Assembly (NCBI GenBank): GCA_951406725.2 | Contig: OX597841.1 | Span: 22,754,001 to 22,818,000, forward strand | Reading direction: 5' to 3' | Source: Octopus vulgaris | Taxonomy: Eukaryota | DNA: 64,000 nt | In this document: positions 1-61,009 of the stretch, piece by piece | Numbering within the stretch: the first letter of the stretch is position 1 | How the letters are laid out: each line of letters starts with the position of its first letter | Translations under genes and position numbers: made by a program | Notes under the pieces: generated by a model | Told to the model about the DNA's origin: nothing | Seen by the model: only the letters and a program-made list of their open reading frames with translations | Database searches by the model: none

Positions 1-1743
1 GAAATACTGAATGAGCAATTCAAGAGTGTTTTCACTCCACCCCTTGGGCATCTCCAAATCACCAATCCAACTGACTTTTTTACCACTGCAGATATAAAAT
101 CAGAGGCGGCGACGATAGATTACATCGATATAAAGGAAGACGATGTAATCAAGGCTATAGATGAAATGAAAACAGACTCAGCTACTGGCCCCGATGGATT
201 CCCGGCAATCCTCCTAAAAGCATGTAAGAGAGTCCTAGCAAGACCACTGCAGTTCCTCTTTCAGAGCTTCCTTGCAGCTGGCAAACTTCCAAGAAAACTG
301 AAGGAAGGTAAAATATGCCCCATTCATAAAGGAGGTAGCAGAGCGGAAGCCAAGAACTACAGACCTATCTCTCTGACCTCACACATCAGCAAGGTCATGG
401 AACGAATAGTCAGAAGGAAGCTGATCACCTTCCTTGAAGAGAATGACTTGCTGCCCGACACCCAACATGGTTTCCGACCAGGGAGAAGCTGTTTAACTCA
501 GCTCCTACAACACTATGACTGGGTGCTGAAACGGCTGCTCAACCACTCAAATGTGGAAGTGATATATCTCGACTTTGCAAAGGCCTTTGATAAAGTCGAT
601 CATGGAATGATATGTCACAAACTGCGTGATCTCAACATAGTTGGAAAACTGGGAGAATGGCTCCATGACTTTCTGAAAGATAGAAGTCAGGTGGTAGTAG
701 CCAATGGGGCCACTTCCATTAACACGCAAATAGTGAGCGGTGTCCCGCAGGGCACTGTTCTGGGACCACTACTGTTCATAATGGCCCTCTCAGACATGCC
801 CTCAGCCACGCAGAGAGCCACGATCACAAGTTATGCAGATGATACAAAAGTTTCACAGGCAATACAGAACCCTGAGGACACTAAGCACCTGCAATGTGAG
901 CTGGACAAAATATACAAGTGGGCTGAAAAGAATAGCATGCAGTTCAATGCTGAAAAGTTTCAAGCTCTATACTATCAGCATGCAAAACTAAATGCAATAC
1001 CCAATGAATACACCGGACCCGGAGGAATAGCAATCCCAGAGGCACAATCAGTGCGTGACCTAGGTATTTACATGAGTGATGACGCGACCTTTCGTGTACA
1101 TGTTGCTAAATTGGCAATGAAATGTAGAAGACTGGCCGGATGGATCCTCAGAACCTTTAGAACAAGAGAACAAGAAACCATGATGGTCCTCTGGAGGACA
1201 CTTGTCCTAAGCCACTTTGACTACTGCTCTCAGTTATGGTCACCATCCAGTGTCAAGTTGATCACAGAGCTCGAGGCGATCCAACGTAGCTACACGAAGA
1301 AGATAGCCTCTATGCAGAATGTAAGCTACTGGGAAAGACTGAAGAGATTAAAACTGTATTCCCTGGAGCGTAGGCGGGAAAGATATGCCATAATATACAT
1401 CTGGAAGATCCTGGAGGGACGTGTCCTAAACTTTGGCATCGAGAGTTACGCAAATGCCAGAACTGGGCGCCACTGCGTGGTGCCTAGGACTCCAAACTCG
1501 CCATCAAGATGTAGGACAAGATTCTGTGATAGCCTGGGCTTCCGAGGCCCACAGCTCTTCAATATCCTCCCGAAGAACCTGAGAGACCTGCATGGGGTGG
1601 ATGCAGATGTCTTTAAAATGAAACTGGATCTCTTCCTGTCAGGTGTCCCAGATGAACCAACTTCACGGCAGGAGGTGCAGATGAGGGCAGCTGCATCGAA
1701 CTCTCTCATGCACCAAATGGCAGTTGCTAAAAAGCTTTCGTGA
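1..1743 (+). CDS. LINE ORF2, reverse transcriptase and C-terminal domain (frame open from window start)
   Basis: Motifs GPDG, NYRPISLTS, QHGFRPGRSC, YLDFAKAFDKVDH, GVPQGTVLGPLLF, YADDT, and the CR1-type C-terminus YCSQLWSP..LYSLERRR. Confidence 0.92.
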   Translation, partial: EILNEQFKSVFTPPLGHLQITNPTDFFTTADIKSEAATIDYIDIKEDDVIKAIDEMKTDSATGPDGFPAILLKACKRVLARPLQFLFQSFLAAGKLPRKLKEGKICPIHKGGSRAEAKNYRPISLTSHISKVMERIVRRKLITFLEENDLLPDTQHGFRPGRSCLTQLLQHYDWVLKRLLNHSNVEVIYLDFAKAFDKVDHGMICHKLRDLNIVGKLGEWLHDFLKDRSQVVVANGATSINTQIVSGVPQGTVLGPLLFIMALSDMPSATQRATITSYADDTKVSQAIQNPEDTKHLQCELDKIYKWAEKNSMQFNAEKFQALYYQHAKLNAIPNEYTGPGGIAIPEAQSVRDLGIYMSDDATFRVHVAKLAMKCRRLAGWILRTFRTREQETMMVLWRTLVLSHFDYCSQLWSPSSVKLITELEAIQRSYTKKIASMQNVSYWERLKRLKLYSLERRRERYAIIYIWKILEGRVLNFGIESYANARTGRHCVVPRTPNSPSRCRTRFCDSLGFRGPQLFNILPKNLRDLHGVDADVFKMKLDLFLSGVPDEPTSRQEVQMRAAASNSLMHQMAVAKKLS

Positions 1744-1835
1744 AGTAAAACCAAGTAGCAACACCAAATGGCGGTGCCCCAGCATGGCCACAGCTCATAA
1801 GCTGAAACTAGAATCAATCGATCAATCAATCAATC
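1..1835 (+). mobile_element. LINE copy 1 (CR1/L2-group non-LTR retrotransposon), 3' part
   Basis: RT ORF followed by a short 3' UTR ending in an (AATC)n tail. Confidence 0.92.
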
Positions 1836-1857
1836 ATGTCTCCAAAAAAGATTTTTC

Positions 1858-2056
1858 GTTTCATGTTCGTCTCTGTTGCGTTGCATTCTTTCCTTCTGTG
1901 GCTGGCTGATTCGGAGCGGATCTCAGAATTGAACGGCCAAAATCTGCGATGAGGGATCAGTTTCTGACTGAAGAATGAAGGCTTTGAATGACCCGTTTGT
2001 CTTTTGTTCGTCCCTTCGTGTATTTCACGTTATTTATTTATGTAAATGTTTATTAT
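1858..2056. repeat. ~200-bp direct repeat X, downstream type
   Basis: gtttcatgttcgtctctg...cacgttatttattta; copies at 6260, 7477, 11923, 13113, 15890, 17101 and a partial copy at 18802. Confidence 0.9.
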
Positions 2057-2712
2057 ATATATATATATATTATACATATATATATATATGTGTATGTATG
2101 TATATATGTATGTATGTATGTATGTATATATATATATGTGTGTATGTATATATATATGTGTGTGTGTATGTATATATATATATGTGTGTGTGTGTATGTA
2201 TATATGTGTGTGTATGTATATATGTATGTGTGTGTGTATGTATATATATATATGTGTGTATGTATATATATGTGTGTTTGTGTGTGTATGTATATATATG
2301 TGTGTGTGTGTGTAAGTATATACATGTGTGTTTGTGTGTGTGTGTATGTATATATGTGTGTGTGTGTGTATGTATATATATGTGTGTGTGTGCATGTATA
2401 TATATGTGTGTGTGTATGTGTATATATGCGTGTGTGTATGTATATATATATATATATGTTATTATTTATTTATCTAAAGGCTTATTATATACATATTGTT
2501 TTGGTGTTCTCTTTTGTGTTAAATATATATGTGTGTGTGTGTATATATATATATATATGTTATTATTTATTTATCTAAAGGTTTATTATATACATATATA
2601 TATATATGTGTGTATGTATATATATGTGTGTGTGTATGTGTATATATATATATATATATGTGTTATTATTTAATTATGCAAGTTCTCAAATGTTATTATA
2701 TACATATATATA
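2057..2712. repeat. Compound (TA)/(TG) microsatellite spacer (truncated)
   Basis: Dinucleotide runs punctuated by gttattatttatttatctaaagg. Confidence 0.95.
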
Positions 2713-5700
2713 TAGGAGGAGTGAAACAAAGGGACTGAAACAACTCAGGACCATAGGGGAAGGGAACCGCAAAAGATGGAAACAAACAGCGCACACGGGT
2801 GTGTAGGTTCTACCTGAGAGGTTCCTGCTGGCATGGAAAGCAAGGTGCAGGCTGCCGCTTTGCACATCGGGGACCCTGCCACAGAGACACGAGGCAGATG
2901 GACAAACCATCAACACAAGGAAAAAGGATGGACCACGCACCACCTGCCCCAAAGCGGAGGTACGCAGATGTTGTGCATGCCACAAACCGCCAACATGATG
3001 TTGTCGAAAGGGCAGCTGCTGAGCAACAATCTTTTTTGTGCATGGCACAAAAGATTGTACAGCAGCTGACCTGGCTTCATCAAACCCAAGCCCGCAGGTG
3101 GGACTACCCACTATATACAAGACCACCACAGCAAACAGACCCAGGATGGACACCGCCGGCAACAACGTACACCTCACCTCGATGCTCCTACTGAACATCA
3201 GAGGGCTGCAAACACTCAGTAACAGGACAAAAATCCCGTTCCTGACAGACTTTGTTGCATGCAATCAAGCCTTATGCATAGCACTTACGGAAACACACCT
3301 GAAACCGGACATAGCAGATGCGGAGTTACACATACCACAGTATGCTGTACTACGGACCGACAGAAAAGAAAGGAGTCATGGAGGTGTTGCTATGTACATC
3401 CGTGAGGACCTCACACCCCAGGTCCTCTTGTCATACTCAAACTCGGTGTGTGACACACTAATTGTACATATTAGGCAACTTGATGTAGTTGTGTGTGCTA
3501 CATATCGCCCTCCAGATGCCCCAAGCCATGTGGGCAAGTTTGAAGACTGCCTTATAAAAATAGAAGAAGTTCTAACCACATTAGAACAACACATAAGTGT
3601 ACTTCTTATGGGAGACTTCAATCTGCCCAGTGTCAGATGGCCCGAGGGCCTTTCTCTCCCAGGAATGACAAGATGTGAACGAGGACAGGCGAGGTCCCTC
3701 CTGAACCTCATCAACACCCTGTACATGGAGCAGGTAATACTCCAACCAACCAGGGCAGGTAACACACTGGATCTCTGCTTCACAAATGACATGGATCTCA
3801 TCCATAATGTAAAAGTGACACCGACACTACTCTCGGATCACAACATGATAGAGCTGACCAAAAGAGTACGGGCCAAAAGAGAGCACGGACATGCAGCCTA
3901 CAAGAAACCCTCAGAATCTTTCCAGCTTGAACTACCATAAGGCAAACTGGAAACATATTGAGAAAGAGATCCTCAAACAAAACTGGCCTAAATGTCTCTC
4001 CTCGCCAGACATCGACGTGAAACTTCAACAATTCATGTCTGTAATGCAAGCCATATGCTACAAATGTGTCCCAGAGAGAAAGGCCACTGTACACAAGAAC
4101 AAAATCCCCAGAGAGAGGAAAATTTTAATGAGACGGCGTACAAAATTTTCAAATCGCCTAAGCAAACAGATTGAAAGCAGTGAAAAGTCCCGCCTAAAAA
4201 TAAAACTGTTGGAAATCGAAAAATGTCTGCAACTCTCTCATGAAAAAGAAAGAGCAGACAAAGAAGCCTGGGCTATAGACAACATAAAATCTAACCCCAG
4301 AGCTTTCTACAGGTATGCCAAAGAAACAGCTATGGTGCACTGTAGAATAGGGCCACTCCTCGAAAAGGATGGCACACTTACAAGTAAACCAATGAGGGTA
4401 AGTGAAATACTGAATGAGCAATTCAAGAGTGTTTTCACTCCACCCCTTGGGCATCTCAAATCACCAATCCAACTGACTTTTTTTACCACTGCAGATATAA
4501 AATCAGAGGCGGCGACGATAGATTACATCGATATAAAGGAAGACGATGTAATCAAGGCTATAGATGAAATGAAAACAGACTCAGCTACTGGCCCCGATGG
4601 ATTCCCGGCAATCCTCCTAAAAGCATGTAAGAGAGTCCTAGCAAGACCACTGCAGTTCCTCTTTCAGAGCTTCCTTGCAGCTGGCAAACTTCCAAGAAAA
4701 CTGAAGGAAGGTAAAATATGCCCCATTCATAAAGGAGGTAGCAGAGCGGAAGCCAAGAACTACAGACCTATCTCTCTGACCTCACACATCAGCAAGGTCA
4801 TGGAACGAATAGTCAGAAGGAAGCTGATCACCTTCCTTGAAGAGAATGACTTGATGCCCGACACCCAACATGGTTTCCGACCAGGAGAAGCTGTTTAACT
4901 CAGCTCCTACAACACTATGACTGGGTGCTGAAACGGCTGCTCAACCACTCAAATGTGGAAGTGATATATCTCGACTTTGCAAAGGCCTTTGATAAAGTCG
5001 ATCATGGAATGATATGTCACAAACTGCGTGATCTCAACATAGTTGGAAAACTGGGAGAATGGCTCCATGACTTTCTGAAAGATAGAAGTCAGGTGGTAGT
5101 AGCCAATGGGGCCACTTCCATTAACACGCAAATAGTGAGCGGTGTCCCGCAGGGCACTGTTCTGGGACCACTACTGTTCATAATGGCCCTCTCAGACATG
5201 CCCTCAGCCACGCAAAGAGCCACGATCACAAGTTATGCAGATGATACAAAAGTTTCACAGGCAATACAGAACCCTGAGGACACTAAGCACCTGCAATGTG
5301 AGCTGGACAAAATATACAAGTGGGCTGAAAAGAATAGCATGCAGTTCAATGCTGAAAAGTTTCAAGCTCTATACTATCAGCATGCAAAACTAAATGCAAT
5401 ACCCAATGAATACACCGGACCCGGAGGAATAGCAATCCCAGAGGCACAATCAGTGCGTGACCTAGGTATTTACATGAGTGATGACGCGACCTTTCGTGTA
5501 CATGTTGCTAAATTGGCAATGAAATGTAGAAGACTGGCCGGATGGATCCTCAGAACCTTTAGAACAAGAGAACAAGAAACCATGATGGTCCTCTGGAGGA
5601 CACTTGTCCTAAGCCACTTTGATTACTGCTCTCAGTTATGGTCACCATCCAGTGTCAAGTTGATCACAGAGCTCGAGGCGATCCAACGTAGCTACACGAA

Positions 5701-6237
5701 GAAGATAGCCTCTATGCAGAATGTAAGCTACTGGGAAAGACTGAAGAGATTAAAACTGTATTCCCTGGAGCGTAGGCGGGAAAGATATGCCATAATATAC
5801 ATCTGGAAGATCCTGGAGGGACGTGTCCTAAACTTTGGCATCGAGAGTTACGCAAATGCCAGAACTGGGCACCACTGCGTGGTGCCTAGGACTCCAAACT
5901 CGCCATCAAGATGTAGGACAAGATTCTGTGATAGCCTGGGCTTCCGAGGCCCACAGCTCTTCAATATCCTCCCGAAGAACCTGAGAGACCTGCATGGGGT
6001 GGATGCAGATGTCTTTAAAATGAAACTGGATCTCTTCCTGTCAGGTGTCCCAGATGAACCAACTTCACGGCAGGAGGTGCAGATGAGGGCAGCTGCATCG
6101 AACTCTCTCATGCACCAAATGGCAGTTGCTAAAAAGCTTTCGTGAAGTAAAACCAAGTAGCAACACCAAATGGCGGTGCCCCAGCATGGCCACAGCTCAT
6201 AAGCTGAAACTAGAATCAATCGATCAATCAATCAATC
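2713..6237 (+). mobile_element. LINE copy 2, 5'-truncated within ORF1
   Basis: Matches copy 3 from ~2763 onward; 2713-2762 is a garbled version of ORF1 sequence; (AATC)n tail. Confidence 0.9.
3182..6145 (+). pseudogene. LINE ORF2 (APE endonuclease + RT), frameshifted
   Basis: APE motifs NIRGL, LTETHL, GGVAMY, YRPP, GDFN, LDLCF, SDHN. Frameshifts near 3860-3900 and 4884, plus a compensating indel pair at ~4457/4484. Confidence 0.88.
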
Positions 6238-6259
6238 ATGTCTCCAAAAAAGATTTTTC

Positions 6260-6453
6260 GTTTCATGTTCGTCTCTGTTGCGTTGCATTCTTTCCTTCTG
6301 TGGCTGGCTGATTCGGAGCGGATCTCAGAATTGAACGGCCGAAATCTGCGATGAGGGATCAGTTTCTGACTGAAGAATGAAGGCTTTGAATGACCCGTTT
6401 GTCTTTTTGTTCGTCCCTTCGTGTATTTCACGTTATTTATTTATGTAAATGTT

Positions 6454-6497
<44 letters not shown>

Positions 6498-6504
6498 ATG
6501 TATG

Positions 6505-6535
<31 letters not shown>

Positions 6536-7235
6536 ATATATATGTGTGTATGTATATATATATATGTGTGTGTGTATGTATATATATATATGTGTGTGTG
6601 TGTATGTATATATGTGTGTGTATGTATATATGTATGTGTGTGTGTATGTATATATATATATGTGTGTATGTATATATATGTGTGTTTGTGTGTGTATGTA
6701 TATATATGTGTGTGTGTGTGTGTAAGTATATACATGTGTGTTTGTGTGTGTGTGTATGTATATATGTGTGTGTGTGTGTATGTATATATATGTGTGTGTG
6801 TGCATGTATATATATATGTGTGTGTGTATGTGTATATATGCGTGTGTGTATGTATATATATATATATATGTTATTATTTATTTATCTAAAGGCTTATTAT
6901 ATACATATATATATATATGTGTGTGTGTGTATATATATATATGTTATTATTTATTTATCTAAAGGTTTATTATATACATATATATATATATGTGTATGTA
7001 TATATATGTGTGTGTGTATGTGTATATATATATATATATGTGTTATTATTTAATTATCTAAAAGTTATTATATACATATATATATATATGTATGTGTGTA
7101 TGTATATATGTGTGTGTGTGTGTATGTATATATGTTTGTGTGTGCATGTATATATATGTGTGTGTGTATGTATATATATATATATATGTTATTATTTATT
7201 TATCCAAAGGTTTATTATATACATATATATATATA

Positions 7236-7268
<33 letters not shown>

Positions 7269-7678
7269 GTTATTATTTATTTATCTAAAGGTTTATTATA
7301 TACATATATATATATATGTATGTGTGTATGTATATATATGTGTGTGTGTATGTATATATATATATATATATGTTATTATTTATTTATGTAAAGTTTTATT
7401 ATATACATATATATATATATGTATGTGTGTATGTATATATATGTGTGTGTGTGTATGTATATATATGTGTGTGTGTGTTTCATGTTCGTCTCTGTTGCGT
7501 TGCATTCTTTCCTTCTGTGGCTGGCTGATTCGGAGCGGATCTCAGAATTAAACAGCCGAAATCTGCGATGAGGGATCAGTTTCTGACTGAGGATGAAGGC
7601 TTTGAATGACCCGTTTGTCTTTTTGTTCGTCCCTTCGTGTATTTCACGTTAGTTATTTATGTAAAGGTTTATTATATA
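6260..7678. repeat. X (downstream type) + ~1-kb TA/TG spacer + X (upstream type)
   Basis: X at 6260-6460 and 7477-7678 with microsatellite between. Confidence 0.92.
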
Positions 7679-8220
7679 TTTCGCAGCGTACGTGCATAAT
7701 AACTTCTTTATGTTTATCATATCAAAACCCCTGCACGATGTCTTTAAACTATTTTCTTTCCTTCGCCATTGCTTCGTTGCCAAATTGTTTTGGCGCCTTT
7801 TTCTCCCAGCCTCTCTGATTCCTTCTCTCCCTCTCTCTCTTGATCACTGCTTCTTCTCTGATTCCTTCTCTCCCTCTCTCTCTCTCGGTCACTGCTTCTG
7901 TCCTCGCCTTCTACCCTCCTTGGTCCCCTCTCTCTTAGCCCCTCCTCTCTCTTACCCTCTTGCGACTTGCTGCCTCAGCCATTCTCTTTCCATCGGCCAC
8001 TTGTTCAACATGTGTCTTATCACCGAAATGGTAATTATTTTTCCACGCTTGCTGATATTGTTTTTGTGTCTCTCTTTTTGTGTTAAAGCCATAGGGCGCC
8101 TGTGTCATCCATGTTTTTAACCGTTACCGGTCGCACATTGGCGCACTTGATGCCATCTTTGAGAACGAGCGGGGCAAAGATGGCAAGAATGGAGACGATG
8201 AAAGAAGTCACCCCCACCTG

Positions 8221-8856
8221 GTGGATTCCCGGGAGGAGGTTTTGAGTGAGAAACCTGCCCGGGTAGTGATCCCAGGTGCAAGTTCTCCAACCGGCAGCAA
8301 GGGCCATGGAGACGGAGAACCCGGTGAAGAGGTAGAGGGAGGAGGAAGAACTAAAAGAAGGACTGGAAGAGCTAAAGGAAAAGCTCAAGCAGGACCAAAG
8401 GGTGAAACAACCAGGAATAGAAGTGGAACCGCAAAAGATGGAAACAAACAGCGCACACGGGTGTGTAGGTTCTACCTGAGAGGTTCCTGCTGGCATGGAA
8501 AGCAAGGTGCAGGCTGCCGCTTTGCACATCGGGGACCCTGCCACAGAGACACGAGGCAGATGGACAAACCATCAACACAAGGAAAAAGGATGGACCACGC
8601 ACCACCTGCCCCAAAGCGGAGGTACGCAGATGTTGTGCGTGCCACAAACCGCCAACATGATGTTGTCGAAAGGGCAGCTGCTGAGCAACAATCTTTTTTG
8701 TGCATGGCACAAAAGATTGTACAGCAGCTGACCTGGCTTCATCAAACCCAAGCCCGCAGGTGGGACTACCCACTATATACAAGACCACCACAGCAAACAG
8801 ACCCAGGATGGACACCGCCGGCAACAACGTACACCTCACCTCGATGCTCCTACTGA
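8221..8856 (+). CDS. LINE ORF1: basic G/K/R-rich protein with a CCCH-type zinc finger
   Basis: CRFYLRGSCWHGKQGAGCRFAH = C-x7-C-x8-C-x3-H. The frame is open from 8095, the start codon is uncertain, and the stop overlaps the ORF2 ATG at 8844. Confidence 0.7.
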   Translation: MDSREEVLSEKPARVVIPGASSPTGSKGHGDGEPGEEVEGGGRTKRRTGRAKGKAQAGPKGETTRNRSGTAKDGNKQRTRVCRFYLRGSCWHGKQGAGCRFAHRGPCHRDTRQMDKPSTQGKRMDHAPPAPKRRYADVVRATNRQHDVVERAAAEQQSFLCMAQKIVQQLTWLHQTQARRWDYPLYTRPPQQTDPGWTPPATTYTSPRCSY

Positions 8857-11809
8857 ACATCAGAGGGCTGCAAACACTCAGTAACAGGACAAAAATCCCG
8901 TTCCTGAGAGACTTTGTTGCATGCAATCAAGCCTTATGCATAGCACTTACGGAAACGCACCTGAAACCGGACATAGCAGATGCGGAGTTACACATACCAC
9001 AGTATGCTGTACTACGGACCGACAGAAAAGAAAGGAGTCATGGAGGTGTTGCTATGTACATCCGTGAGGACCTCACACCCCAGGTCCTCTTGTCATACTC
9101 AAACTCGGTGTGTGACACACTAATTGTACATATTAGGCAACTTGATGTAGTTGTGTGTGCTACATATCGCCCTCCAGATGCCCCAAGCCATGTGGGCAAG
9201 TTTGAAGACTGCCTTATAAAAATAGAAGAAGTTCTAACCACATTAGAACAACACATAAGTGTACTTCTTATGGGAGACTTCAATCTGCCCAGTGTCAGAT
9301 GGCCCGAGGGCCTTTCTCTCCCAGGAATGACAAGATGTGAACGAGGACAGGCGAGGTCCCTCCTGAACCTCATCAACACCCTGTACATGGAGCAGGTAAT
9401 ACTCCAACCAACCAGGGCAGGTAACACACTGGATCTCTGCTTCACAAATGACATGGATCTCATCCATAATGTGAAAGTGACACCGACACTACTCTCGGAT
9501 CACAACATGATAGAGCTGACCAAAAGAGTACGGGCCAAAAGAGAGCACGGACATGCAGCCTACAAGAAACCCTCAGAATCTTTCCAGCTTGAACTACCAT
9601 AAGGCAAACTGGAAACAAATTGAGAAAGAGATCCTCAAACAAAACTGGCCTAAATGTCTCTCCTCGCCAGACATCGACGTGAAACTTCAACAATTCATGT
9701 CTGTAATGCAAGCCATATGCTACAAATGTGTCCCAGAGAGAAAGGCCACTGTACACAAGAACAAAATCCCCAGAGAGAGGAAAATTTTAATGAGACGGCG
9801 TACAAAATTTTCAAATCGCCTAAGCAAACAGATTGAAAGCAGTGAAAAGTCCCGCCTAAAAATAAAACTGTTGGAAATCGAAAAATGTCTGCAACTCTCT
9901 CATGAAAAAGAAAGAGCAGACAAAGAAGCCTGGGCTATAGACAACATAAAATCTAACCCCAGAGCTTTCTACAGGTATGCCAAAGAAACAGCTATGGTGC
10001 ACTGTAGAATAGGGCCACTCCTCGAAAAGGATGGCACACTTACAGGAAAACCAATGAGGGTAAGTGAAATACTGAATGAGCAATTCAAGAGTGTTTTCAC
10101 TCCACCCCTTGGGCATCTCCAAATCACCAATCCAACTGACTTTTTTTACCACTGCAGATATAAAATCAGAGGCGGCGACGATAGATTACATCGATATAAA
10201 GGAAGACGATGTAATCAAGGCTATAGATGAAATGAAAACAGACTCAGCTACTGGCCCCGATGGATTCCCGGCAATCCTCCTAAAAGCATGTAAGAGAGTC
10301 CTAGCAAGACCACTGCAGTTCCTCTTTCAGAGCTTCCTTGCAGCTGGCAAACTTCCAAGAAAACTGAAGGAAGGTAAAATATGCCCCATTCATAAAGGAG
10401 GTAGCAGAGCGGAAGCCAAGAACTACAGACCTATCTCTCTGACCTCACACATCAGCAAGGTCATGGAACGAATAGTCAGAAGGAAGCTGATCACCTTCCT
10501 TGAAGAGAATGACTTGCTGCCCGACACCCAACATGGTTTCCGACCAGGGAGAAGCTGTTTAACTCAGCTCCTACAACACTATGACTGGGTGCTGAAACGG
10601 CTGCTCAACCACTCAAATGTGGAAGTGATATATCTCGACTTTGCAAAGGCCTTTGATAAAGTCGATCATGGAATGATATGTCACAAACTGCGTGATCTCA
10701 ACATAGTTGGAAAACTGGGAGAATGGCTCCATGACTTTCTGAAAGATAGAAGTCAGGTGGTAGTAGCCAATGGGGCCACTTCCATTAACACGCAAATAGT
10801 GAGCGGTGTCCCGCAGGGCACTGTTCTGGGACCACTACTGTTCATAATGGCCCTCTCAGACATGCCCTCAGCCACGCAGAGAGCCACGATCACAAGTTAT
10901 GCAGATGATACAAAAGTTTCACAGGCAATACAGAACCCTGAGGACACTAAGCACCTGCAATGTGAGCTGGACAAAATATACAAGTGGGCTGAAAAGAATA
11001 GCATGCAGTTCAATGCTGAAAAGTTTCAAGCTCTATACTATCAGCATGCAAAACTAAATGCAATACCCAATGAATACACCGGACCCGGAGGAATAGCAAT
11101 CCCAGAGGCACAATCAGTGCGTGACCTAGGTATTTACATGAGTGATGACGCGACCTTTCGTGTACATGTTGCTAAATTGGCAATGAAATGTAGAAGACTG
11201 GCCGGATGGATCCTCAGAACCTTTAGAACAAGAGAACAAGAAACCATGATGGTCCTCTGGAGGACACTTGTCCTAAGCCACTTTGACTACTGCTCTCAGT
11301 TATGGTCACCATCCAGTGTCAAGTTGATCACAGAGCTCGAGGCGATCCAACGTAGCTACACGAAGAAGATAGCCTCTATGCAGAATGTAAGCTACTGGGA
11401 AAGACTGAAGAGATTAAAACTGTATTCCCTGGAGCGTAGGCGGGAAAGATATGCCATAATATACATCTGGAAGATCCTGGAGGGACGTGTCCTAAACTTT
11501 GGCATCGAGAGTTACGCAAATGCCAGAACTGGGCGCCACTGCGTGGTGCCTAGGACTCCAAACTCGCCATCAAGATGTAGGACAAGATTCTGTGATAGCC
11601 TGGGCTTCCGAGGCCCACAGCTCTTCAATATCCTCCCGAAGAACCTGAGAGACCTGCATGGGGTGGATGCAGATGTCTTTAAAATGAAACTGGATCTCTT
11701 CCTGTCAGGTGTCCCAGATGAACCAACTTCACGGCAGGAGGTGCAGATGAGGGCAGCTGCATCGAACTCTCTCATGCACCAAATGGCAGTTGCTAAAAAG
11801 CTTTCGTGA
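8844..11809 (+). pseudogene. LINE ORF2 APE-RT (~985 aa if two +1 shifts are corrected)
   Basis: ORF-track pieces 8700-9602, 9553-10230 and 10076-11809. The second shift is a T7 run at 10141 where copy 1 has T6. Confidence 0.9.
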
Positions 11810-11922
11810 AGTAAAACCAAGTAGCAACACCAAATGGCGGTGCCCCAGCATGGCCACAGCTCATAAGCTGAAACTAGAATCAATCGATCAATCAATCAAT
11901 CATGTCTCCAAAAAGATTTTTC

Positions 11923-12166
11923 GTTTCATGTTCGTCTCTGTTGCGTTGCATTCTTTCCTTCTGTGGCTGGCTGATTCGGAGCGGATCTCAGAATTGAACG
12001 GCCGAAATCTGCGATGAGGGATCAGTTTCTGACTGAAGAATGAAGGCTTTGAATGACCCGTTTGTCTTTTTGTTCGTCCCTTCGTGTATTTCACGTTATT
12101 TATTTATGTAAATGTTTATTATATATATATATATATAATATATATATATATATATGTGTATGTATG

Positions 12167-12197
<31 letters not shown>

Positions 12198-12873
12198 ATA
12201 TATATATGTGTGTATGAATATATATATGTGTGTGTGTATGTATATATGTGTGTGTATGTATATATGTATGTGTGTGTGTATGTATATATATATATGTGTG
12301 TATGTATATATATGTGTGTTTGTGTGTGTACGTATATATATGTGTGTGTGTGTGTGTAAGTATATATATGTGTGTTTGTGTGTGTGTGTATGTATATATG
12401 TGTGTGTGTGTGTATGTATATATATGTGTGTGTGTGCATGTATATATATGTGTGTGTGTATGTGTATATATGCGTGTGTGTATGTATATATATATATATA
12501 TGTTATTATTTATTTATCTAAAGGCTTATTATATACATATATATATATATGTGTGTGTGTGTATATATATATATATATGTTATTATTTATTTATCTAAAG
12601 GTTTATTATATACATATATATATATATGTGTGTATGTATATATATGTGTGTGTGTATGTGTATATATATATATATATGTGTTATTATTTAATTATCTAAA
12701 AGTTATTATATACATATATATATATATGTATGTGTGTATGTATATATGTGTGTGTGTGTGTATGTATATATGTTTGTGTGTGCATGTATATATATGTGTG
12801 TGTGTATGTATATATATATATATATGTTATTATTTATTTATCCAAAGGTTTATTATATACATATATATATATA

Positions 12874-12904
<31 letters not shown>

Positions 12905-13315
12905 GTTATTATTTATTTATCTAAAGGTTTATTATATACATATATATATATATGTATGTGTGTATGTATATATATGTGTGTGTGTATGTATATATATATA
13001 TATATATGTTATTATTTATTTATGTAAAGGTTTATTATATACATATATATATATATGTATGTGTGTATGTATATATATGTGTGTGTGTGTATGTATATAT
13101 ATGTGTGTGTGTGTTTCATGTTCGTCTCTGTTGCGTTGCATTCTTTCCTTCTGTGGCTGGCTGATTCGGAGCGGATCTCAGAATTAAACAGCCGAAATCT
13201 GCGATGAGGGATCAGTTTCTGACTGAGGATGAAGGCTTTGAATGACCCGTTTGTCTTTTTGTTCGTCCCTTCGTGTATTTCACGTTATTTATTTATGTAA
13301 AGGTTTATTATATAT
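11923..13315. repeat. X + TA/TG spacer + X
   Basis: Same structure as 6260-7678. Confidence 0.92.
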
Positions 13316-13316
13316 T

Positions 13317-15868
13317 TCGCAGCGTACGTGCATAATAACTTCTTTATGTTTATCATATCAAAACCCCTGCACGATGTCTTTAAACTATTTTCTTTCCTTC
13401 GCCATTGCTTCGTTGCCAAATTGTTTTGGCGCCTTTATCTCCCAGCCTCTCTGATTCCTTCTCTCCCTCTCTCTCTTGATCACTGCTTCTTCTCTGATTC
13501 CTTCTCTCCCTCTCTCTCTCTCGGTCACTGCTTCTGTCCTCGCCTTCTACCCTCCTTGGTCCCCTCTCTCTCTTAGCCCCTCCTCTCTCTTACCCTCTTG
13601 CGACTTGCTGCCTCAGCCATTCTCTTTCCATCGGCCACTTGTTCAACATGTGTCTTATCACCGAAAAGGTAATTATTTTTCCACGCTTGCTGATATTGTT
13701 TTTGTGTCTCTCTTTTTGTGTTAAAGCCATAGGGCGCCTGTGTCATCCATGTTTTTAACCGTTACCGGTCGCACATTGGCGCACTTGATGCCATCTTTGA
13801 GAACGAGCGGGGCAAAGATGGCAAGAATGGAGACGATGAAAGAAGTCACCCCCACCTGGTGGATTCCCGGGAGGAGGTTTTGAGTGAGAAACCTGCCCGG
13901 AAAGTGATCCCAGGTGCAAGTTCTCCAACCGGCAGCAAGGGCCATGGAGACGGAGAACCCGGTGAAGAGGTAGAGGGAGGAGGAAGAACTAAAAGAAGGA
14001 CTGGAAGAGCTAAAGGAAAAGCTCAAGCAGGACCAAAGGGTGAAACAACCAGGAATAGAAGTGGAACCGCAAAAGATGGAAACAAACAGCGCACACGGGT
14101 GTGTAGGTTCTACCTGAGAGGTTCCTGCTGGCATGGAAAGCAAGGTGCAGGCTGCCGCTTTGCACATCGGGGACCCTGCCACAGAGACACGAGGCAGATG
14201 GACAAACCATCAACACAAGGAAAAAGGATGGACCACGCACCACCTGCCCCAAAGCGGAGGTACGCAGATGTTGTGCGTGCCACAAACCGCCAACATGATG
14301 TTGTCGAAAGGGCAGCTGCTGAGCAACAATCTTTTTTGTGCATGGCACAAAAGATTGTACAGCAGCTGACCTGGCTTCATCAAACCCAAGCCCGCAGGTG
14401 GGACTACCCACTATATACAAGACCACCACAGCAAACAGACCCAGGATGGACACCGCCGGCAACAACGTACACCTCACCTCGATGCTTCTACTGAACATCA
14501 GAGGGCTGCAAACAATCAGTAACAGGACAAAAATCCCGTTCCTGACAGACTTTGTTGCATGCAATCAAGCCTTATGCATAGCACTTACGGAAATGCACCT
14601 GAAACCGGACATAGCAGATGCGGAGTTACACATACCACAGTATGCTGTACTACGGACCGACAGAAAAGAAAGGAGTCATGGAGGTGTTGTTATGTACATC
14701 CGTGAGGACGTCACACCCCAGGTCCTCTTGTCATACTCAAACTCGGTGTGTGACACACCAATTGTACATATTAGGCAACTTGATGTAGTTGTGTGTGCTA
14801 CATATCGCCCTCCAGATGCCCCAAGCCATGTGGGCAAGTTTGAAGACTGCCTTATAAAAATAGAAGAAGTTCTAACCACATTAGAACAACACATAAGTGT
14901 ACTTCTTATGGGAGACTTCAATCTGCCCAGTGTCAGATGGCCCGAGGGCCTTCCTCTCCCAGGAATGACAAGATGTGAACGAGGACAGGCGTTGTCCCTC
15001 CTGAACCTCATCAACACCCTGTACATGGAGCAGGTAATACTCCAATCAACCAGGGCAGGTAACACACTGGATCTCTGCTTCACAAATGACATGGATCTCA
15101 TCTATAATGTGAAAGTGACACCGACACTACTCTCGGATCACACATGATAGAGCTGACCAAAAGAGTACGGGCCAAAAGAGAGCACGGACATGCAGCCTAC
15201 AAGAAACCCTCAGAATCTTTCCAGCTTGAACTACCATAAGGCAAACTGGAAACAAATTGAGAAAGAGATCCTCAAACAAAACTGGCCTAAATGTCTCTCC
15301 TCGCCAGACATCGACGTGAAACTTCAACAATTCATGTCTGTAATGCAAGCCATATGCTACAAATGTGTCCCAGAGAGAAAGGCCACTGTACACAAGAACA
15401 AAATCCCCAGAGAGAGGAAAATTTTAATGAGACGGCGTACAAAATTTTCATCGAGAGTGAAAACTTTGGCATCGAGAGTTACGCAAATGCCAGAACTGGG
15501 CGCCACTGCGTGGTGCCTTGGACTCCAAACTCGCCATCAAGATGTAGGACAAGATTCTGTGATAGCCTGGGCTTCCGAGGCCCACAGCTCTTCAATATCC
15601 TCCCGAAGAACCTGAGAGACCTGCATGGGGTGGATGCAGATGTCTTTAAAATGAAACTGGATCTCTTCCTGTCAGGTGTCCCAGATGAACCAACTTCACG
15701 GCAGGAGGTGCAGATGAGGGCAGCTGCATCGAACTCTCTCATGCACCAAATGGCAGTTGCTAAAAAGCTTTCGTGAAGTAAAACCAAGTAGCAACACCAA
15801 ATGGCGGTGCCCCAGCATGGCCACAGCTCATAAGCTGAAACTAGAATCAATCGATCAATCAATCAATC
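13317..15868 (+). mobile_element. LINE copy 4 with ~1.68-kb internal deletion removing the RT domain
   Basis: ORF1 at 13859-14494 and APE present; sequence jumps at 15450/15461 from the linker to the C-terminal region. Confidence 0.9.
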
Positions 15869-15889
15869 ATGTCTCCAAAAACATTTTTC

Positions 15890-16861
15890 GTTTCATGTTC
15901 GTCTCTGTTGCGTTGCATTCTTTCCTTCTGTGGCTGGCTGATTCGGAGCGGATCTCAGAATTGAACGGCCGAAATCTGCGATGAGGGATCAGTTTCTGAC
16001 TGAAGAATGAAGGCTTTGAATGACCCGTTTGTCTTTTTGTTCGTCCCTTCGTGTATTTCACGTTATTTATTTATGTAAATGTTTATTATATATATATATA
16101 TATTATATATATATATATATATGTGTATGTATGTATATATGTATGTATGTATGTATGTATATATATATGTGTGTATGTATATATATATGTGTGTGTGTAT
16201 GTATATATATATATGTGTGTGTGTGTATGTATATATGTGTGTGTATGTATATATGTATGTGTGTGTGTATATATATATATATGTGTGTATGTATATATAT
16301 GTGTGTTTGTGTGTGTATGTATATATATGTGTGTATGTGTGTGTAAGTATATACATGTGTGTTTGTGTGTGTGTGTATGTATATATGTGTGTGTGTGTGT
16401 ATGTATATATATGTGTGTGTGTGTGATGTATATATATATGTGTGTGTGTATGTGTATATATGCGTGTGTGTATGTATATATATATATATATGTTATTATT
16501 TATTTATCTAAAGGCTTATTATATACATATATATATATATGTGTGTGTGTGTATATATATATATGTTATTATTTATTTATCTAAAGGTTTATTATATACA
16601 TATATATATATATGTGTGTATGTATATATATGTGTGTGTGTATGTGTATATATATATATATATGTGTTATTATTTAATTATCTAAAAGTTATTATATACA
16701 TATATATATATATGTATGTGTGTGTATGTATATATGTGTGTGTGTGTGTATGTATATATGTTTGTGTGTGCATGTATATATATGTGTGTGTGTATGTATA
16801 TATATATATATATGTTATTATTTATTTATCCAAAGGTTTATTATATACATATATATATATA

Positions 16862-16892
<31 letters not shown>

Positions 16893-17303
16893 GTTATTAT
16901 TTATTTATCTAAAGGTTTATTATATACATATATATATATATGTATGTGTGTATGTATATATATGTGTGTGTGTATGTATATATATATATATATATGTTAT
17001 TATTTATTTATGTAAAGGTTTATTATATACATATATATATATATGTATGTGTGTATGTATATATATGTGTGTGTGTGTATGTATATATATGTGTGTGTGT
17101 GTTTCATGTTCGTCTCTGTTGCGTTGCATTCTTTCCTTCTGTGGCTGGCTGATTCGGAGCGGATCTCAGAATTAAACAGCCGAAATCTGCGATGAGGGAT
17201 CAGTTTCTGACTGAGGATGAAGGCTTTGAATGACCCGTTTGTCTTTTTGTTCGTCCCTTCGTGTATTTCACGTTATTTATTTATGTAAAGGTTTATTATA
17301 TAT
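15890..17303. repeat. X + TA/TG spacer + X
   Basis: Same structure as 6260-7678. Confidence 0.92.
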
Positions 17304-17304
17304 T

Positions 17305-18794
17305 TCGCAGCGTACGTGCATAATAACTTCTTTATGTTTATCATATCAAAACCCCTGCACGATGTCTTTAAACTATTTTCTTTCCTTCGCCATTGCTTCG
17401 TTGCCAAATTGTTTTGGCGCCTTTATCTCCCAGCCTCTCTGATTCCTTCTCTCCCTCTCTCTCTTGATCACTGCTTCTTCTCTGATTCCTTCTCTCCCTC
17501 TCTCTCTCTCGGTCACTGCTTCTGTCCTCGCCTTCTACCCTCCTTGGTCCCCTCTCTCTCTTAGCCCCTCCTCTCTCTTACCTCTTGGACTTGCTGCCTC
17601 AGCCATTCTCTTGCCATCGGCCACTTGTTCAGCTTCTCTTTCCATCGGCCATGTGTCTTATCACCGAAAAGGTAATTATTTTTCCACGCTTGCTGATATT
17701 GTTTCTGTGTCTCTCTTTTTGTGTTAAAGCCATAGGGCGCCTGTGTCATCCATGTTTTTAACCGTTACCGGTCGCACATTGGCGCACTTGATGCCATCTT
17801 TGAGAACGAGCGGGCAAAGATGGCAAGAATGGAGACGATGAAAGAAGTCACCCCCACCTGGTGGATTCCCGGGAGGAGGTTTTGAGTGAGAAACCTGCCC
17901 GGAACTGTGATCCCAGGTGCAAGTTCTCAAACCGGCAGCAAGGGCCATGGAGACAGAGAACCCGGTGAAGAGGTAGAGGGAGGAGGAAGAACTAAAAGAA
18001 GGACTGGAAGAGCTAAAGGAAAAGCTCAAGCAGAAGGCCAAAGGGTGAAACAACCAGGAATAGAAGTGGAACCGCAAAAGATGGAAACAAACAGCGCACA
18101 CAGGTGTGTAGGTTCTACCTGAGAGGTTTCTGCTGGCATGGAAAGCAAGGTGCAGGCTGCCGCTTTGCACATCGGGGACCCTGCCACAGAGACACGAGGC
18201 AGATGGACAAACCATCAACACAAGGAAAAAGGATGGACCACGCACCACCTGCCCCAAAGCGGAGGTACGCAGATGTTGTGCGTGCCACAAACCGCCAACA
18301 TGATGTTGTCGAAAGGGCAGCTGCTGAGCAACAATCTTTTTTGTGCATGGCACAAAAGATTGTACAGCAGCTGACCTGGCTTCATCAAACCCAAGCCCGC
18401 AGGTGGGACTACCCACTATATACAAGACCACCACAGCAAACAGACCCAGGATGGACACCGCCGGCAACAACGTACACCTCACCTCGATGCTCCGACTGAA
18501 CATCAGAGGGCTGCAAACACTCAGTAACAGGACAAAAATCCCGTTCCTGAGAGACTTTGTTGCATGCAATCAAGCCTTATGCATAGCACTTACGGAAACG
18601 CACCTGAAACCGGACATAGCAGATGCGGAGTTACACATACCACAGTATGCTGTACTACGGACCGACAGAAAAGAAAGGAGTCATGGAGGTGTTGCTATGT
18701 ACATCCGTGAGGACCTCACACCCCAGGTCCTCTTGTCATACTCAAACTCGGTGTGTGACACACTAATTGTACATATTAGGCAACTTGATGTAGT
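17305..18794 (+). mobile_element. LINE copy 5, 3'-truncated in the APE domain
   Basis: Ends at ..caacttgatgtagt, then a partial downstream-type X at 18802-18891. Confidence 0.88.
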
Positions 18795-18885
18795 CTCAGT
18801 GTGAGGGATCAGTTTCTGACTGAAGAATGAAGGCTTTGAATGACCCATTTGTCTTTTTGTTCCCCTTCGTGTATTTCACGTTATT

Positions 18886-20770
18886 TATTTTTAAATAAAA
18901 GAATTTATAAAGCGATTCTCCCAAGGACCAAGGTTTGTTGGAAGCCTTGGGATGGAGAAGATGGTATGTTGAAGGGTTGTTTATGGTGAATCAAGTTCGT
19001 TTACAAACAGACGAATGTCCTGTTCAAGTAAAAGATTTTGATGTCTCTGCGGAAGGAAAGACAGTTGTGTGTGAAAAAGCCAATAATGGAAATGTTAAAA
19101 TATTCGATGAAGACGGCCAGTTGCTATGTCACAGAAATGCTGCAAGTTTAGTTGGTGGTGTGTGTTTTACACAAGAATCACACATAATGGCCACGGTTCC
19201 TAAAAGGAAAGAAATATTTCAACTGAATGGAGAAGATTTGCAGACATCTCAAGTTTGGTCGAGTCTCATCCCTTATGGTGTAATAGGGAGAAAAGTGGCG
19301 GGTATTTACTGATGTGAACATATTGAATTGATTGAATGTCATTGCATAAAGATTGATGGGGACCAAGTGAACATTCTGGAATCTGTGTCATTATTAAATC
19401 TTGATTCTGGTCTTCGTTTCCCTTCCATTACATCTGAAACGAACAAGGAAATATTCAGTAATGAATTAATTAATAAATTGGAATACAGAGGAGGAGATGG
19501 AGATGGAGGAGGAAGAAGAAGAGGTAAATCAGGTGAAATAATTGGTAAAGGTAGATTAAAGGTGAGATGTAGTAATTACCTAGCGGAGATTAATTATTCA
19601 GGAATTGATGAAATATCAGTGTGGAGACTTCCATATAGGACAGCAATGGTCCCTTTTTCCATTCCTGCATTCGAGGAACCTGTTGATTATGATTATTGGG
19701 ACATTAGGGACCGGAATAGTAAACTAATTAAGTTAGATGAGAATGTGAGTGTGTTGATGTTTCGAGAAAGTGTCACATTAATCAGAACAACAACAACAAC
19801 AGTGGACATACTTCAACATGAACAACAACAACGACCACCACTGGACATATGTCGGTGGACAGAGGAATGTTTCATTGTCGCCTTTGGGAGAGAAATGAGG
19901 GTCTTTAACAGGGATCTCCAGTTCAAGATTTTGAAAAACCATGCGGAAGGAAAGACAGTTGTGTGTGTGTGAAATACTAGCCAATAATGGAAATGTTATA
20001 AATATTCGATGAAGACGACAATCAACTCGTGTGTGGTGTGTGTTCATTATATTAGAGATATACACTCAAGAAGAGAGACATGAGGAATACCTAAAAGAAA
20101 ATGGAAGAAACAACTGAATGGAGAAGATTTGCAGACATCTCGACAGTTTGGTCGAGTCTCATCCCTTATTATGTGGATAGGGAGAAAAGATGGCGGGTAT
20201 TTACTGATGTGAACATATTGAATTGATTGAATGTCATTGCATAAAGATTGATGGGGACCAAGTGAACATTCTGGAAGGTCTGTCAGTCATTATTAAATCT
20301 TGATTCTGGTCTTCGTTTCACATCCATTACATCTGAAACGAACAAGGAAATGTTCAGTTGTTTTGAGGAGGGAGATGGAGGTGGAGGAGGAGTCTGGAGA
20401 TTGGGAAGTTTTGTGTTTTGTGGAATGGTTCAGGGAAAAGTCTTTGGTGAGGAGGATAAGAATAGAAGGAGGAAGGTTTTATGGTCGGGAATATTATATT
20501 GCAAGACCTCGTCTGACCATAATTGGTGAATGTGTTTATATAACAGAGATCATGAACAATATTTACGAAATACCTCGACATATTGAAGAGGAAACATCTG
20601 AAGATTATGAGATCCTGGGATTAAAAGATAATCCAAAATATTTACTCCTCAGACGGGATGATAATGAAGTCTTTGCAGTTCTTGGTTTGGATGTTTCAGA
20701 CAATTCTTTGATGGTTTTTGGAATTATTCCTGGACGTCAATCTTTTGCTTTCTTTTATTTTGACAAATAA
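18886..20770 (+). pseudogene. Disrupted intronless gene, probably a beta-propeller (NHL/TRIM-like) protein
   Basis: ORFs 18935-19312 and 19328-19972 are in one frame, split by a TGA. Blade-like segments (DFDVSAEGKTVVCEKANNGNVKIFDEDGQLL; GGVCFTQESHIMATVP). C-terminal ORF stops at 20770 overlapping AATAAA. Paralog at 36.0-36.5 kb. Confidence 0.55.
19943..20360 (+). repeat. Indel-rich internal duplicate of 19047-19460
   Basis: gcggaaggaaagacagttgtgtgtg...acgaacaaggaaat repeated with many small indels. Confidence 0.8.
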
Positions 20771-22860: not shown

Positions 22861-22911
22861 TCGAGGGAAAATGTGTGTGATTTAAGGGAGATTTGGCTGT
22901 TGTTTCTAGCA

Positions 22912-23670
22912 CCCTGGGTATCGACATGAGTGAGGATACCTCTTTCCAAGTGCACATTACCAGGATGGCGACAAAGTGCAGACGACTGGCTGGATGGATC
23001 TTAAGAACATTCAGAACCAGAGATAAGGAAACCATGATGGTCCTCTGGCGGACATTCGTCCTCAGCCGCCTGGATTACTGCTCACAGCTATGGTTACCCA
23101 CCAGTGTGAAATTAACAGCGGGTCTTGAAGCAATCCAGAGAAGATTCACAAAGAGGATCATCTCTTTGCAACAGCTCAGCAACTGGGAAAGGTTGGGACA
23201 GCTAAGACTCTACTCCCTGGAGAGAAGACGGGAGAAGTATGCAGTAATATATATCTGGAAGATCCTGGAAGGAATTGTGCCAAATTTTGGCATTGTAAGC
23301 TACACCATGCCAGAAGAAGCCGACACTACGTAGTGCCAAAGATCCCAGCAATGCCATCATGCTTCAGGACCAGCTACTGCAATAGCCTGGGCTTCAGGGA
23401 CCCACAGCTTTTTAATATTCTCCCAAAGAGCCTGAGGAGCCTGCACAAAGTGGATGTAGGGGTTTTAAAATCAAAGCTGGACCTCTTCCTGTCGAGAGTC
23501 CCAGATGAACCTACCTCATGGCAAGAGGTGCAAATGAGGATAAGCAACATCAAACTCCATTCTTCACCAAGTGCCACATATTAGAGGAGACTCTCAGTAA
23601 TAACAGAGTAGCAAACGGTAGTGCTCCAGCATGGTCACAACTCTGAGCTGAAACTACAAAAAGAAAAAAT
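22912..23670 (+). mobile_element. Older 5'-truncated relative of the array LINE
   Basis: KCRRLAGWILRTFRTRDKETMMVLWRT..LYSLERRREKYAVIYIWKILEG; frameshifted; same tail ggtagtgctccagcatggtcac..gctgaaacta. Confidence 0.9.
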
Positions 23671-42282: not shown

Positions 42283-42929
42283 AATATACATACATAACAG
42301 TTTACAACTTGAGGTGAGGGACGTCTAGCTACCAAATTCCATCCGGGTTGTTGTTTACTTCCAAGAATTGCGTTTTAAATCTAGGACGATAGGAGCTGTT
42401 TTTCTCAGAATTCTATTGACTCATGTTACAGTAAATTATTCAGATTAACAAGTAAGCCTTTATATGGCAGCTTGTTTATAACTGTGGTGGTGGTGGTGGT
42501 TGGTAAGGAAAACAGCCATGTCAGCACCATGTGTGTGTGTGTGTGTGTGTGTATGTGTGTGAAAAAGAAAAGGCGTGGCAGTGTCTGAACTTTCAGAATA
42601 TTCCATCCCCATGGAGAGTGATTTTAAGTTAAATTTTTTCCTGTTTCCCACTGTGTTTAGCCCTTTGTGGGTAGTAAAGAAAAATATACATACATAACAG
42701 TTTACAACTTGAGGTGAGGGACGTCTAGCTACCAAATTCCATCCGGGTTGTTGTTTACTTCCAAGAATTGCGTTTTAAATCTAGGACGATAGGAGCTGTT
42801 TTTCTCAGAATTCTATTGACTCATGTTACAGTAAATTATTCAGATTAACAAGTAAGCCTTTATATGGCAGCTTGTTTATAACTGTGGTGGTGGTGGTGGT
42901 TGGTAAGGAAAACAGCCATGTCAGCACCA

Positions 42930-42963
<34 letters not shown>

Positions 42964-43050
42964 TGAAAAAGAAAAGGCGTGGCAGTGTCTGAACTTTCAG
43001 AATATTCCATCCCCATGGAGAGTGATTTTAAGTTAAATTTTTTCCTGTTT
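42245..43050 (+). repeat. 400-bp tandem duplication
   Basis: ctgtgtttagccctttgtggg at 42251 and 42651; near-identical. Confidence 0.92.
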
Positions 43051-49020: not shown

Positions 49021-49059
49021 ATTATTCGTTTATTTGTTTCGGTCATTTCAACAGGTAGG

Positions 49060-60965: not shown

Positions 60966-61009
60966 ATGGATTATTCGGGTATTTGTTTCGGTCATTTGAA
61001 CAGGTAGGG

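Follow-up and report, generated by a model that had tools for sequence, protein, structure and literature searches.

A 64,000-nt stretch of Octopus vulgaris DNA (contig OX597841.1, positions 22,754,001 to 22,818,000; in the following called the window) begins with the 3′ part of a LINE whose tail resembles that of a SINE located further downstream on the opposite strand. An earlier note on this DNA suggested that the two are partners and that this LINE family supplies the reverse transcriptase (RT) mobilising an abundant SINE. The locus raises the question of whether LINE and SINE share a structured 3′ tail, which LINE gave the SINE this tail, and which RT moves it. Publications are cited by PMC number, each for the portion of its text that was accessible.

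A predicted double-hairpin tail in LINE families A to E

The LINE tail at 1769-1808, 26 nt 3′ of the ORF2 stop codon, reads as described in the earlier note; two hairpins side by side are predicted for it (−17.9 kcal/mol, z −2.9; equalled by 4 of 200 shuffles). The same holds for the SINE tail at 34811-34853 on the minus strand, whose segment 34853-34814 gives a like double hairpin (−17.7, z −4.3; 0 of 200 shuffles). The letters of the second stem, CAGCT/AGCTG in the LINE and CAGTC/GACTG in the SINE, were likewise confirmed. Two further tails had been named as related, at 30741 (SINE) and 23617 (an older LINE). Both are present but decayed, with stem-breaking mutations, and the double hairpin is not predicted for either on its own; the tail at 23617 belongs to a separate sister family (73% ORF2 DNA identity), called B below, with the LINE at the start of the window as family A. 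The abundant SINE is called SINE1. The features of the window are as follows:

1-1743, plus strand: family A ORF2, 3′ part with RT domain and C-terminus, truncated by the edge of the window; stop codon at 1741-1743
1769-1790, plus strand: hairpin 1 of the family A tail, with two 4-bp segments on either side of a G-G mismatch and a 4-nt loop, from fold and pair counts; its base is the 5′-truncation and fusion hot spot
1791-1804, plus strand: hairpin 2, a 5-bp stem (CAGCT/AGCTG) with a 4-nt loop that varies and covariation between families at pairs 4 and 5, from fold and alignment
1805-1835, plus strand: a conserved AAAC next to hairpin 2, followed by terminal repeats of the form (AATC)n, from sequence and alignment
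6171-6210, plus strand: identical tail in the second array unit
8095-11880, plus strand: most complete family A copy in the window, with ORF1 (CCCH-like motif) and ORF2 (APE endonuclease and RT), frameshifted; tail at 11835
22881-23660, plus strand: 5′-truncated, decayed family B copy with its tail at about 23616-23654
30157-30793, plus strand: older, interrupted SINE1 copy with tRNA-like head, CORE-like segment and decayed tail at 30741
34808-35276, minus strand: 3′ half of a SINE1 copy with intact tail (34853-34814), split by a ~240-bp element

Searching the genome (2.8 Gb in 227 contigs) yielded 10,497 matches to the LINE-type tail pattern and 12,176 to the exact SINE tail. These are not chance matches, since the reversed-pattern control gave none in either case. 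By pattern and protein searches we found at least five APE-RT LINE families that end in the 40-nt tail, with ORF2 DNA 67–74% identical, and folding a single representative from each of five LINE families and from both SINEs introduced below predicts the double hairpin every time. Stem 2 reads CAGCT/AGCTG in family A (loops CATA, CATG, CGTG, CAAG and CATT), CAGCC/GGCTG in families D and E, and CAGTC/GACTG with the loop ATTG in family C; family B has ATCA in loop 1 and a 3-nt loop 2. Short tandem repeats take the place of poly(A) at the 3′ end, as is typical of stringent LINEs: AATC, AAAAT and AAAC in A, AAAAGAAT in C and E, and AAAAGAGT in SINE1; the 3′ end of B is A-rich. Between LINE families the tails are alike at 31–37 of 40 nt, as against only 12–20 of the 30 nt upstream. 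A tree built on ORF2 alone (31 rows, ignoring three rows that are SINE tails beside a LINE and one mislabelled row, E, which is family A) has the topology ((C,E),(B,(D,A))); averages for family E from these data are affected by the mislabelled row. Among 80 metagenome loci none carried the tail, and two weak partial motif hits were judged to be chance.

As a measure of age, the median divergence from the majority sequence is 4.4% for C (n = 43) and 1.8% for B (n = 29), and subfamilies of A range from 0 to 5.6%, all on 140–300 nt and in samples chosen by pattern or best hit. Unbroken ORF2 frames of 1038–1039 codons occur in families A and B. Family C is low-copy and decayed, its hits dropping to at most 92% with frequent stops. 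One family B copy (L273; contig C3, 82.82 Mb) has a 1364-codon stop-free frame that extends upstream of the endonuclease domain.

The domains PF14529, PF03372 and PF00078 lie within one 1039-codon ORF2 frame, a combination common to other clades too. Among homologs of the ORF2 protein only one is named, from Argonauta hians (62–63% identity). From its RT motifs, and from CR1 activity in octopus, we take family A to be a putative CR1-group LINE; a neighbouring clade such as Proto2 is possible. CR1 is among the LINE types described as active in octopus (PMC13282606).

Four identical family A tails lie in the window (1769, 6171, 11835 and 15802), because the LINE sits in a tandem array. Such head-to-tail arrays, with a period of ~5.66 kb, occur at several places on contig C28, where the window array spans 1-18900, and also on C31. 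Each unit consists of the LINE, two copies of a 200-nt unit and a TA/TG tract with identical junctions, and some units have internal deletions. The DNA downstream, including the family B copy, was duplicated along with the array. This looks like tandem and segmental amplification, at the DNA level, of a LINE-bearing unit. Site-specific insertion was rejected as the origin of the array on account of the identical junctions and the co-duplicated downstream DNA; it is also opposed by the 200-nt unit, which is dispersed as a repeat in its own right and was missing from both of the dispersed LINE copies that were examined. Dispersed family A copies align from about position 8131 of the window copy. 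Copies of the 200-nt unit lie at 1858-2060, 6260-6463, 7477-7679, 11923-12126, 13113-13315, 15890-16093 and 17101-17303; compared with Rfam they gave chance hits only, and dispersed relatives (L358, L392 and L398) are ~80% identical. For the whole window, the Rfam scan returned no match at gathering score and ARAGORN no tRNA. Elsewhere in the window, a ~7-kb duplication (42735-50008 and 54917-61960, 95–96% identical) carries in each copy a PIF1-like helicase fragment on the minus strand (49212-49751 and 61161-61700) and appears Helitron-like, and ~1.4 kb of (AAT)/(GAT) trinucleotide repeat occupies 27580-29050.

The earlier note had proposed to align many LINE and SINE tails and to look for covariation. 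In our alignment of 17 representative tails, evaluated by counts against shuffles, 96.8% of the 221 cells pair, compared with 92.0% when shuffled (reached in 0 of 500), a comparison in which related sequences may exceed shuffles without any structure; controls with the pairing slid gave 21–43%. Three of the 13 pairs (6:27, 31:38 and 32:37) change on both sides. Read by eye on the ORF2 tree, double changes occurred at least twice at pair 5 of stem 2, once at pair 4 and at least once at the closing pair of hairpin 1, the other 7 of whose 8 pairs lack double changes. This bears out the proposal of a structured LINE 3′ tail common to SINEs with compensatory changes at the family level. The statistical support for covariation is moderate, because the pair-count and pair-type measures stay within the range of the shuffles (306 and 338 of 500) and only one row has double changes other than U-A/C-G transitions.

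Within single copies, inspection by eye of the first 100 of 843 matches in which stem position 4 is a purine showed no compensation, as expected because the copies are dead. That the tail was kept as primary sequence or by descent alone, with the covariation as transition noise, is very unlikely: the few covarying pairs, nearly all of transition type, the count measures and the uncompensated decayed copies would agree with it, but inner stem pairs are unbroken in every family-level majority tail, with more than ten forms among the loops, the double changes sit on separate branches, and the flanks have diverged to near-random identity.

The probable partner LINEs of SINE1 and SINE2

SINE1 begins with a tRNA-like head, continues with a CORE-like segment (CCTTGGG), an internal (TA)n(TG)n tract and a body, and ends in the tail followed by AAAAGAGT repeats. 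Its assignment as CORE-like follows from the CCTTGGG motif, which is present after the head and has been named as the conserved CORE motif (PMC5786205). Motifs resembling A and B boxes can be recognised by eye in the SINE1 head, and ARAGORN calls no tRNA in the heads of SINE1 or SINE2. In 39 stretches of 10 kb taken at round coordinates we found 61 tails, 49 of SINE1 and 12 SINE1-like by eye, and none of a LINE, corresponding to ~156 SINE1-type tails per Mb in this 390-kb sample. The element that splits the SINE1 copy on the minus strand of the window (34966-35205) is MITE-like with 11-nt terminal inverted repeats. At two other loci, L156 and L158, a SINE1 head is fused directly to a SINE1 tail, with the middle missing.

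SINE2 is short, with a tRNA-like head and the tail of the CAAG subfamily of family A. Its exact junction occurs 688 times genome-wide. The ten tails sampled are all identical to each other and to that subfamily, and copies are 0–1.8% from the majority sequence. For both SINEs, the point where homology to the LINE ends is no more than 8 nt from the hairpin base.

Which family gave SINE1 its tail can be judged from the tail itself. Ungapped, the SINE1 tail matches family C at 36 of 40 positions, followed by E (33), A (31) and D (30). The sequence of loop 1 has no value for identifying the donor, because older SINE1 copies carry CCCA, as in A, D and E, and not the TCCA of C. Since C has the identical stem 2 and, in common with E, a AAAAGAAT-type repeat, as opposed to the repeats of A, the SINE1 tail was probably taken from the C lineage. 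The earlier note had named a better match from another LINE family as an argument against its proposal, and C is such a family. The stem swap that it read as a change between the window LINE and the SINE also has to be placed elsewhere, as two swaps that appear to have arisen stepwise among the LINE families via the CAGCC/GGCTG state of D and E; an origin by paired indels is possible and less economical.

That family A was both tail donor and RT source for SINE1 is improbable in our view. Family A is young and abundant with open ORF2 frames, it overlaps in age with the youngest SINE1 cluster (1.6% diverged; 35 of 149 copies), and with three gaps it matches the SINE1 tail at 35 of 40 positions, compared with 36 for C. 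Against this, C holds the second stem without gaps together with the same type of terminal repeat, D and E provide the intermediate stem, the AATC, AAAAT and AAAC repeats of A are unlike those of SINE1, and SINE2 is a far better fit to A (38–40 of 40). We consider family A the likely partner of SINE2, a very young element that would be its current passenger.

With the C lineage as donor, the movement of the youngest SINE1 copies would most simply be explained by another RT. The 1.6% cluster looks younger than C, which suggests that SINE1 kept moving after C had faded, probably by means of its younger relatives A and/or B. To this extent the proposal that family A moves the abundant SINE may stand, for the youngest copies, with A not being the donor of the tail. 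Ages appear to overlap between SINE2 and young SINE1 on one side and A and B on the other, and between bulk SINE1 and C, as estimated on short regions in selected samples. Zebrafish L2 proteins recognise their own tails strictly (PMC4176376), so that cross-mobilisation of SINE1 by A or B is no safe assumption. A young LINE with the exact SINE1 tail was not found among 138 matches to an ORF2 end with a CAGT stem; judged by eye, the 100 listed of these either belong to family C or differ by a single mutation from A, B, D or minor relatives.

Each of these elements is found preferentially next to (TA)n, which lies downstream of 37 of 138 SINE1, 44 of 83 A, 14 of 17 B, 17 of 40 C and 6 of 10 SINE2 copies (27–82%), compared with 347 of 4000 random windows (9%). 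Target-site duplications of at least 8 nt did not exceed background (5 of 52 sites, compared with 0–4 in 20 shuffles); duplications are hidden by the (TA)n in which many of the sites are located. At the level of the clade, a stringent LINE/SINE partnership is, judging from these sequences, very probable.

Breaks and fusions at the base of hairpin 1

We took the 70 LINE-type tails at the head of the list, which cover the first 19 Mb of contig C1, and classified them by how far homology to the LINE continues upstream. In 31 it is lost within 5 nt of the base of hairpin 1, and 8 are SINE2. Two others end at 6 and 13 nt, none at 16–50 nt, and 29 reach at least 95 nt. Tail-only inserts make up ~44% of these LINE-type tails. 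No upstream body is shared among the 31 save for one U6 fusion pair and one likely duplicated pair, and a hidden non-autonomous family was rejected on this ground. Genome-wide, 3,449 copies keep 12 nt of upstream family A sequence, or ~3,600 after calibration (20/26, 26/32), which is ~35% of the 10,497 and agrees with 26 of 70 in the sample. SINE1 differs: 1 of 30 tails was tail-only, compared with 31 of 70 for the LINE type (Fisher P 2e-5). Loose ends at 1763-1774 in four contig-only runs are at most a weak hint of short copies outside the assembly.

The same position recurs in fusions to U6. With a pattern that places U6 before the tail, we recovered 27 fusions at the hairpin base (21 of A type and 6 of SINE1 type), and Rfam confirmed the U6 identity in the four tested. 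Because this pattern selects the junction, we also took an unselected set, the first 30 of 166 U6 3′ ends. Ten of them join at the hairpin base (A 4, B 1, D 3, SINE1 2), seven at the 5′ end of a full-length SINE1 (L438, L440, L443, L455, L460, L462 and L465), one inside SINE1 and one at another SINE-like head. Two are joined to another U6, seven belong to tandem U6 genes, two are without assignment, and none lies in a LINE body. All eight U6-LINE fusions are thus at the hairpin base (P 0.005), and SINE1 breaks there in 1 of 30 tails and in 2 of 10 SINE1-U6 fusions. Most fusions keep U6 through its oligo-U end, and the junctions carry a few extra letters, mostly A/T. The seven tandem U6 copies (L444-L450; contig C1, 139.42 Mb), ~1.0–1.4 kb apart with shared flanks, are probably real U6 genes. 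At three further loci (L408, L436 and L066), tRNA-like or SINE-like heads are fused to the LINE tail at the hairpin base, one of them ending in oligo-T; these are candidate proto-SINEs.

In the eel, the stringent LINE UnaL2 has its 3′ stem-loop bound and primes on terminal repeats. Binding of the 3′ stem-loop by ORF2 is described for stringent LINEs (PMC4176376). By this model, the 40-nt tail with its two predicted hairpins is a shared 3′ tail and likely the site held by the ORF2 protein before priming. The protein would bind the double hairpin and prime reverse transcription on the terminal repeats, while the LINE mRNA would be degraded back to the protected tail. The RT would then meet a true RNA 5′ end at the hairpin base, where it could either complete a tail-only insert or jump to the 3′ end of a Pol III RNA (U6 or tRNA), and the resulting head-plus-tail chimeras would be a ready source of SINEs carrying exactly this tail. 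We read the hairpin base as an RNA 5′ end because the other U6 fusions are mostly at small-RNA 5′ ends and because in non-LTR RTs the addition of non-templated bases is followed by a jump from one template end to another (PMC8857657). In its behaviour the base resembles such an end, and this offers a possible route by which small RNAs gain exactly this tail. For the trimmed-RNA route to tail-only inserts and fusions, we see an even chance.

Next to it, and rather less probable, is an RT that stalls or releases on leaving its binding site, at a switch from initiation to elongation, with no trimming of the RNA. The break sits where a bound protein would end, SINE1 also breaks there sometimes, and the short L2 pieces in platypus U6 chimeras have been read as template switching (PMC4476161). 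Such a stall should, however, affect SINE and LINE templates alike, yet the tail-only share is 1 of 30 for SINE1 and 31 of 70 for LINE-type tails; moreover, of the 11 other U6 fusions with an assignment, 10 join a small-RNA copy at its 5′ end.

It is unlikely that the fusion takes place at the RNA level, by an endonuclease cut at the hairpin base that leaves a 5′-OH, to which RtcB ligates U6 with its 2′,3′-cyclic phosphate before retrotransposition. In 7 of 30 cases U6 is attached to a full-length SINE1 at its 5′ end, which is expected to carry a triphosphate. The oligo-U ends held in most fusions would suit a ligation, as would the precedent of human U6/L1 (PMC6789731), but the extra A/T-rich letters resemble non-templated addition before template jumping (PMC8857657), and tRNA-like heads are fused as well (L408 and L436).

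Taken as a whole, our explanation, comprising a shared recognition tail, its transfer from C to SINE1 with later movement by A and/or B, SINE2 as the passenger of A, and the trimmed-RNA route, appears quite probable to us. More tentatively, a ~60-nt trimmed, ORF2-protected tail RNA might even be the commonest template of this clade, with the RT jumping from its 5′ end onto Pol III RNAs, so that a SINE factory would be running in this genome.

Relation to known LINE/SINE systems

A partnership of this type is already known, from bivalve CR1/CORE SINEs and from eel L2. Eel UnaL2 and UnaSINE1 have a 3′ stem-loop and short terminal repeats without poly(A). The octopus elements are like these stringent L2 in the 3′ stem-loop, the short terminal repeats and the lack of poly(A), and unlike them in having two adjacent hairpins, with a hairpin 2 loop that varies freely even within family A. 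In zebrafish ZfL2-1 and ZfL2-2, the region between EN and RT reads the stem generally and the loop specifically (PMC4176376). As the hairpin 2 loop is free to vary in octopus, any specificity must lie elsewhere (loop 1, the G-G mismatch or AAAC).

In bivalves, CR1-14_CGi shares a stem-loop tail with compensatory mutations with BivaV-SINE2 and BivaCORE-SINE1 (PMC4824008), and CR1-Zenon elements serve V, Core, Meta and Deu SINEs as partners (PMC11481361). Like the octopus system, these combine a mollusc LINE of the CR1 group, putatively so in octopus, with a stem-loop 3′ tail that is common to CORE SINEs and has compensatory mutations, and they resemble it further in the 35–61 bp of homology and in one LINE type serving several SINEs. 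The bivalve tail given with PMC4824008 shows no likeness by eye to the octopus tail. A difference from bivalves is that octopus has several LINE families and two SINEs whose positions on a tree can be given. The parts of both bivalve accounts at hand (PMC4824008 and PMC11481361) report no truncation or fusion hot spot.

Joining of U6 to the 5′ side of LINE or SINE sequence, including stringent L2 and RTE, has been described in platypus and lizard (PMC4476161), and U6/LINE and U6/SINE chimeras have been proposed as a way in which SINEs gain tails (PMC4476161, PMC6789731 and PMC11838501). Vertebrate L1 partners of U6 are variably truncated, and the platypus case joins a truncated U6 to a short L2 piece, whereas all 8 unselected cases in octopus have one and the same LINE junction, the hairpin base, and ~44% of the sampled LINE-type tails are tail-only inserts. 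In the literature searched, to which the 1994 octopus SINE paper, Repbase, SINEBase and one MetaSINE supplement did not belong, no fixed truncation point at a LINE tail hairpin is reported. This sharp truncation and fusion point is the part that would be new to a specialist.

Octopus SINEs themselves have a longer history. Ohshima and Okada reportedly described the tRNA-derived octopus SINEs OR1 and OR2 in 1994. SINE1 is like these CORE SINEs in being tRNA-headed, CORE-like and very abundant, a likeness by description only. PMC4824008 and PMC4758252 disagree, in the text available, on which of OR1 and OR2 is CORE, and neither text, to that extent, names a partner LINE for them. tRNA-Core is a main SINE type in octopus (PMC8967140). 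The octopus repeat annotation lists CR1, tRNA-CORE and U-type entries (PMC13282606), and the words partner, tail, stem and chimer are absent from its text. An octopus LINE partner for SINE1 was not found in the accessible parts of the literature searched, including PMC4758252, PMC3747384, PMC10294476, PMC3531059, PMC5786205, PMC11203168 and PMC8967140.

SINEs make up over a tenth of octopus DNA (PMC13282606), and the present analysis points to the likely driving force behind one of this genome's most abundant repeats. Five RTs with their matching tails form a natural series in which RNA recognition can be mapped. How a SINE acquires precisely the LINE segment that is recognised, with nothing beyond it, is an old question to which the fixed breakpoint is relevant, and one that can be tested by mapping RNA 5′ ends. 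If the 40-nt tail is sufficient for insertion, it would provide a compact handle for RNA cargo in cephalopod transgenesis. Should the tentative view of a running SINE factory hold, its stages would be visible side by side in this genome, as thousands of tail-only inserts, dozens of U6- and tRNA-tail fusions, the newborn SINE2, and the old, expanded SINE1 that outlives its donor LINE through the RTs of sister families.
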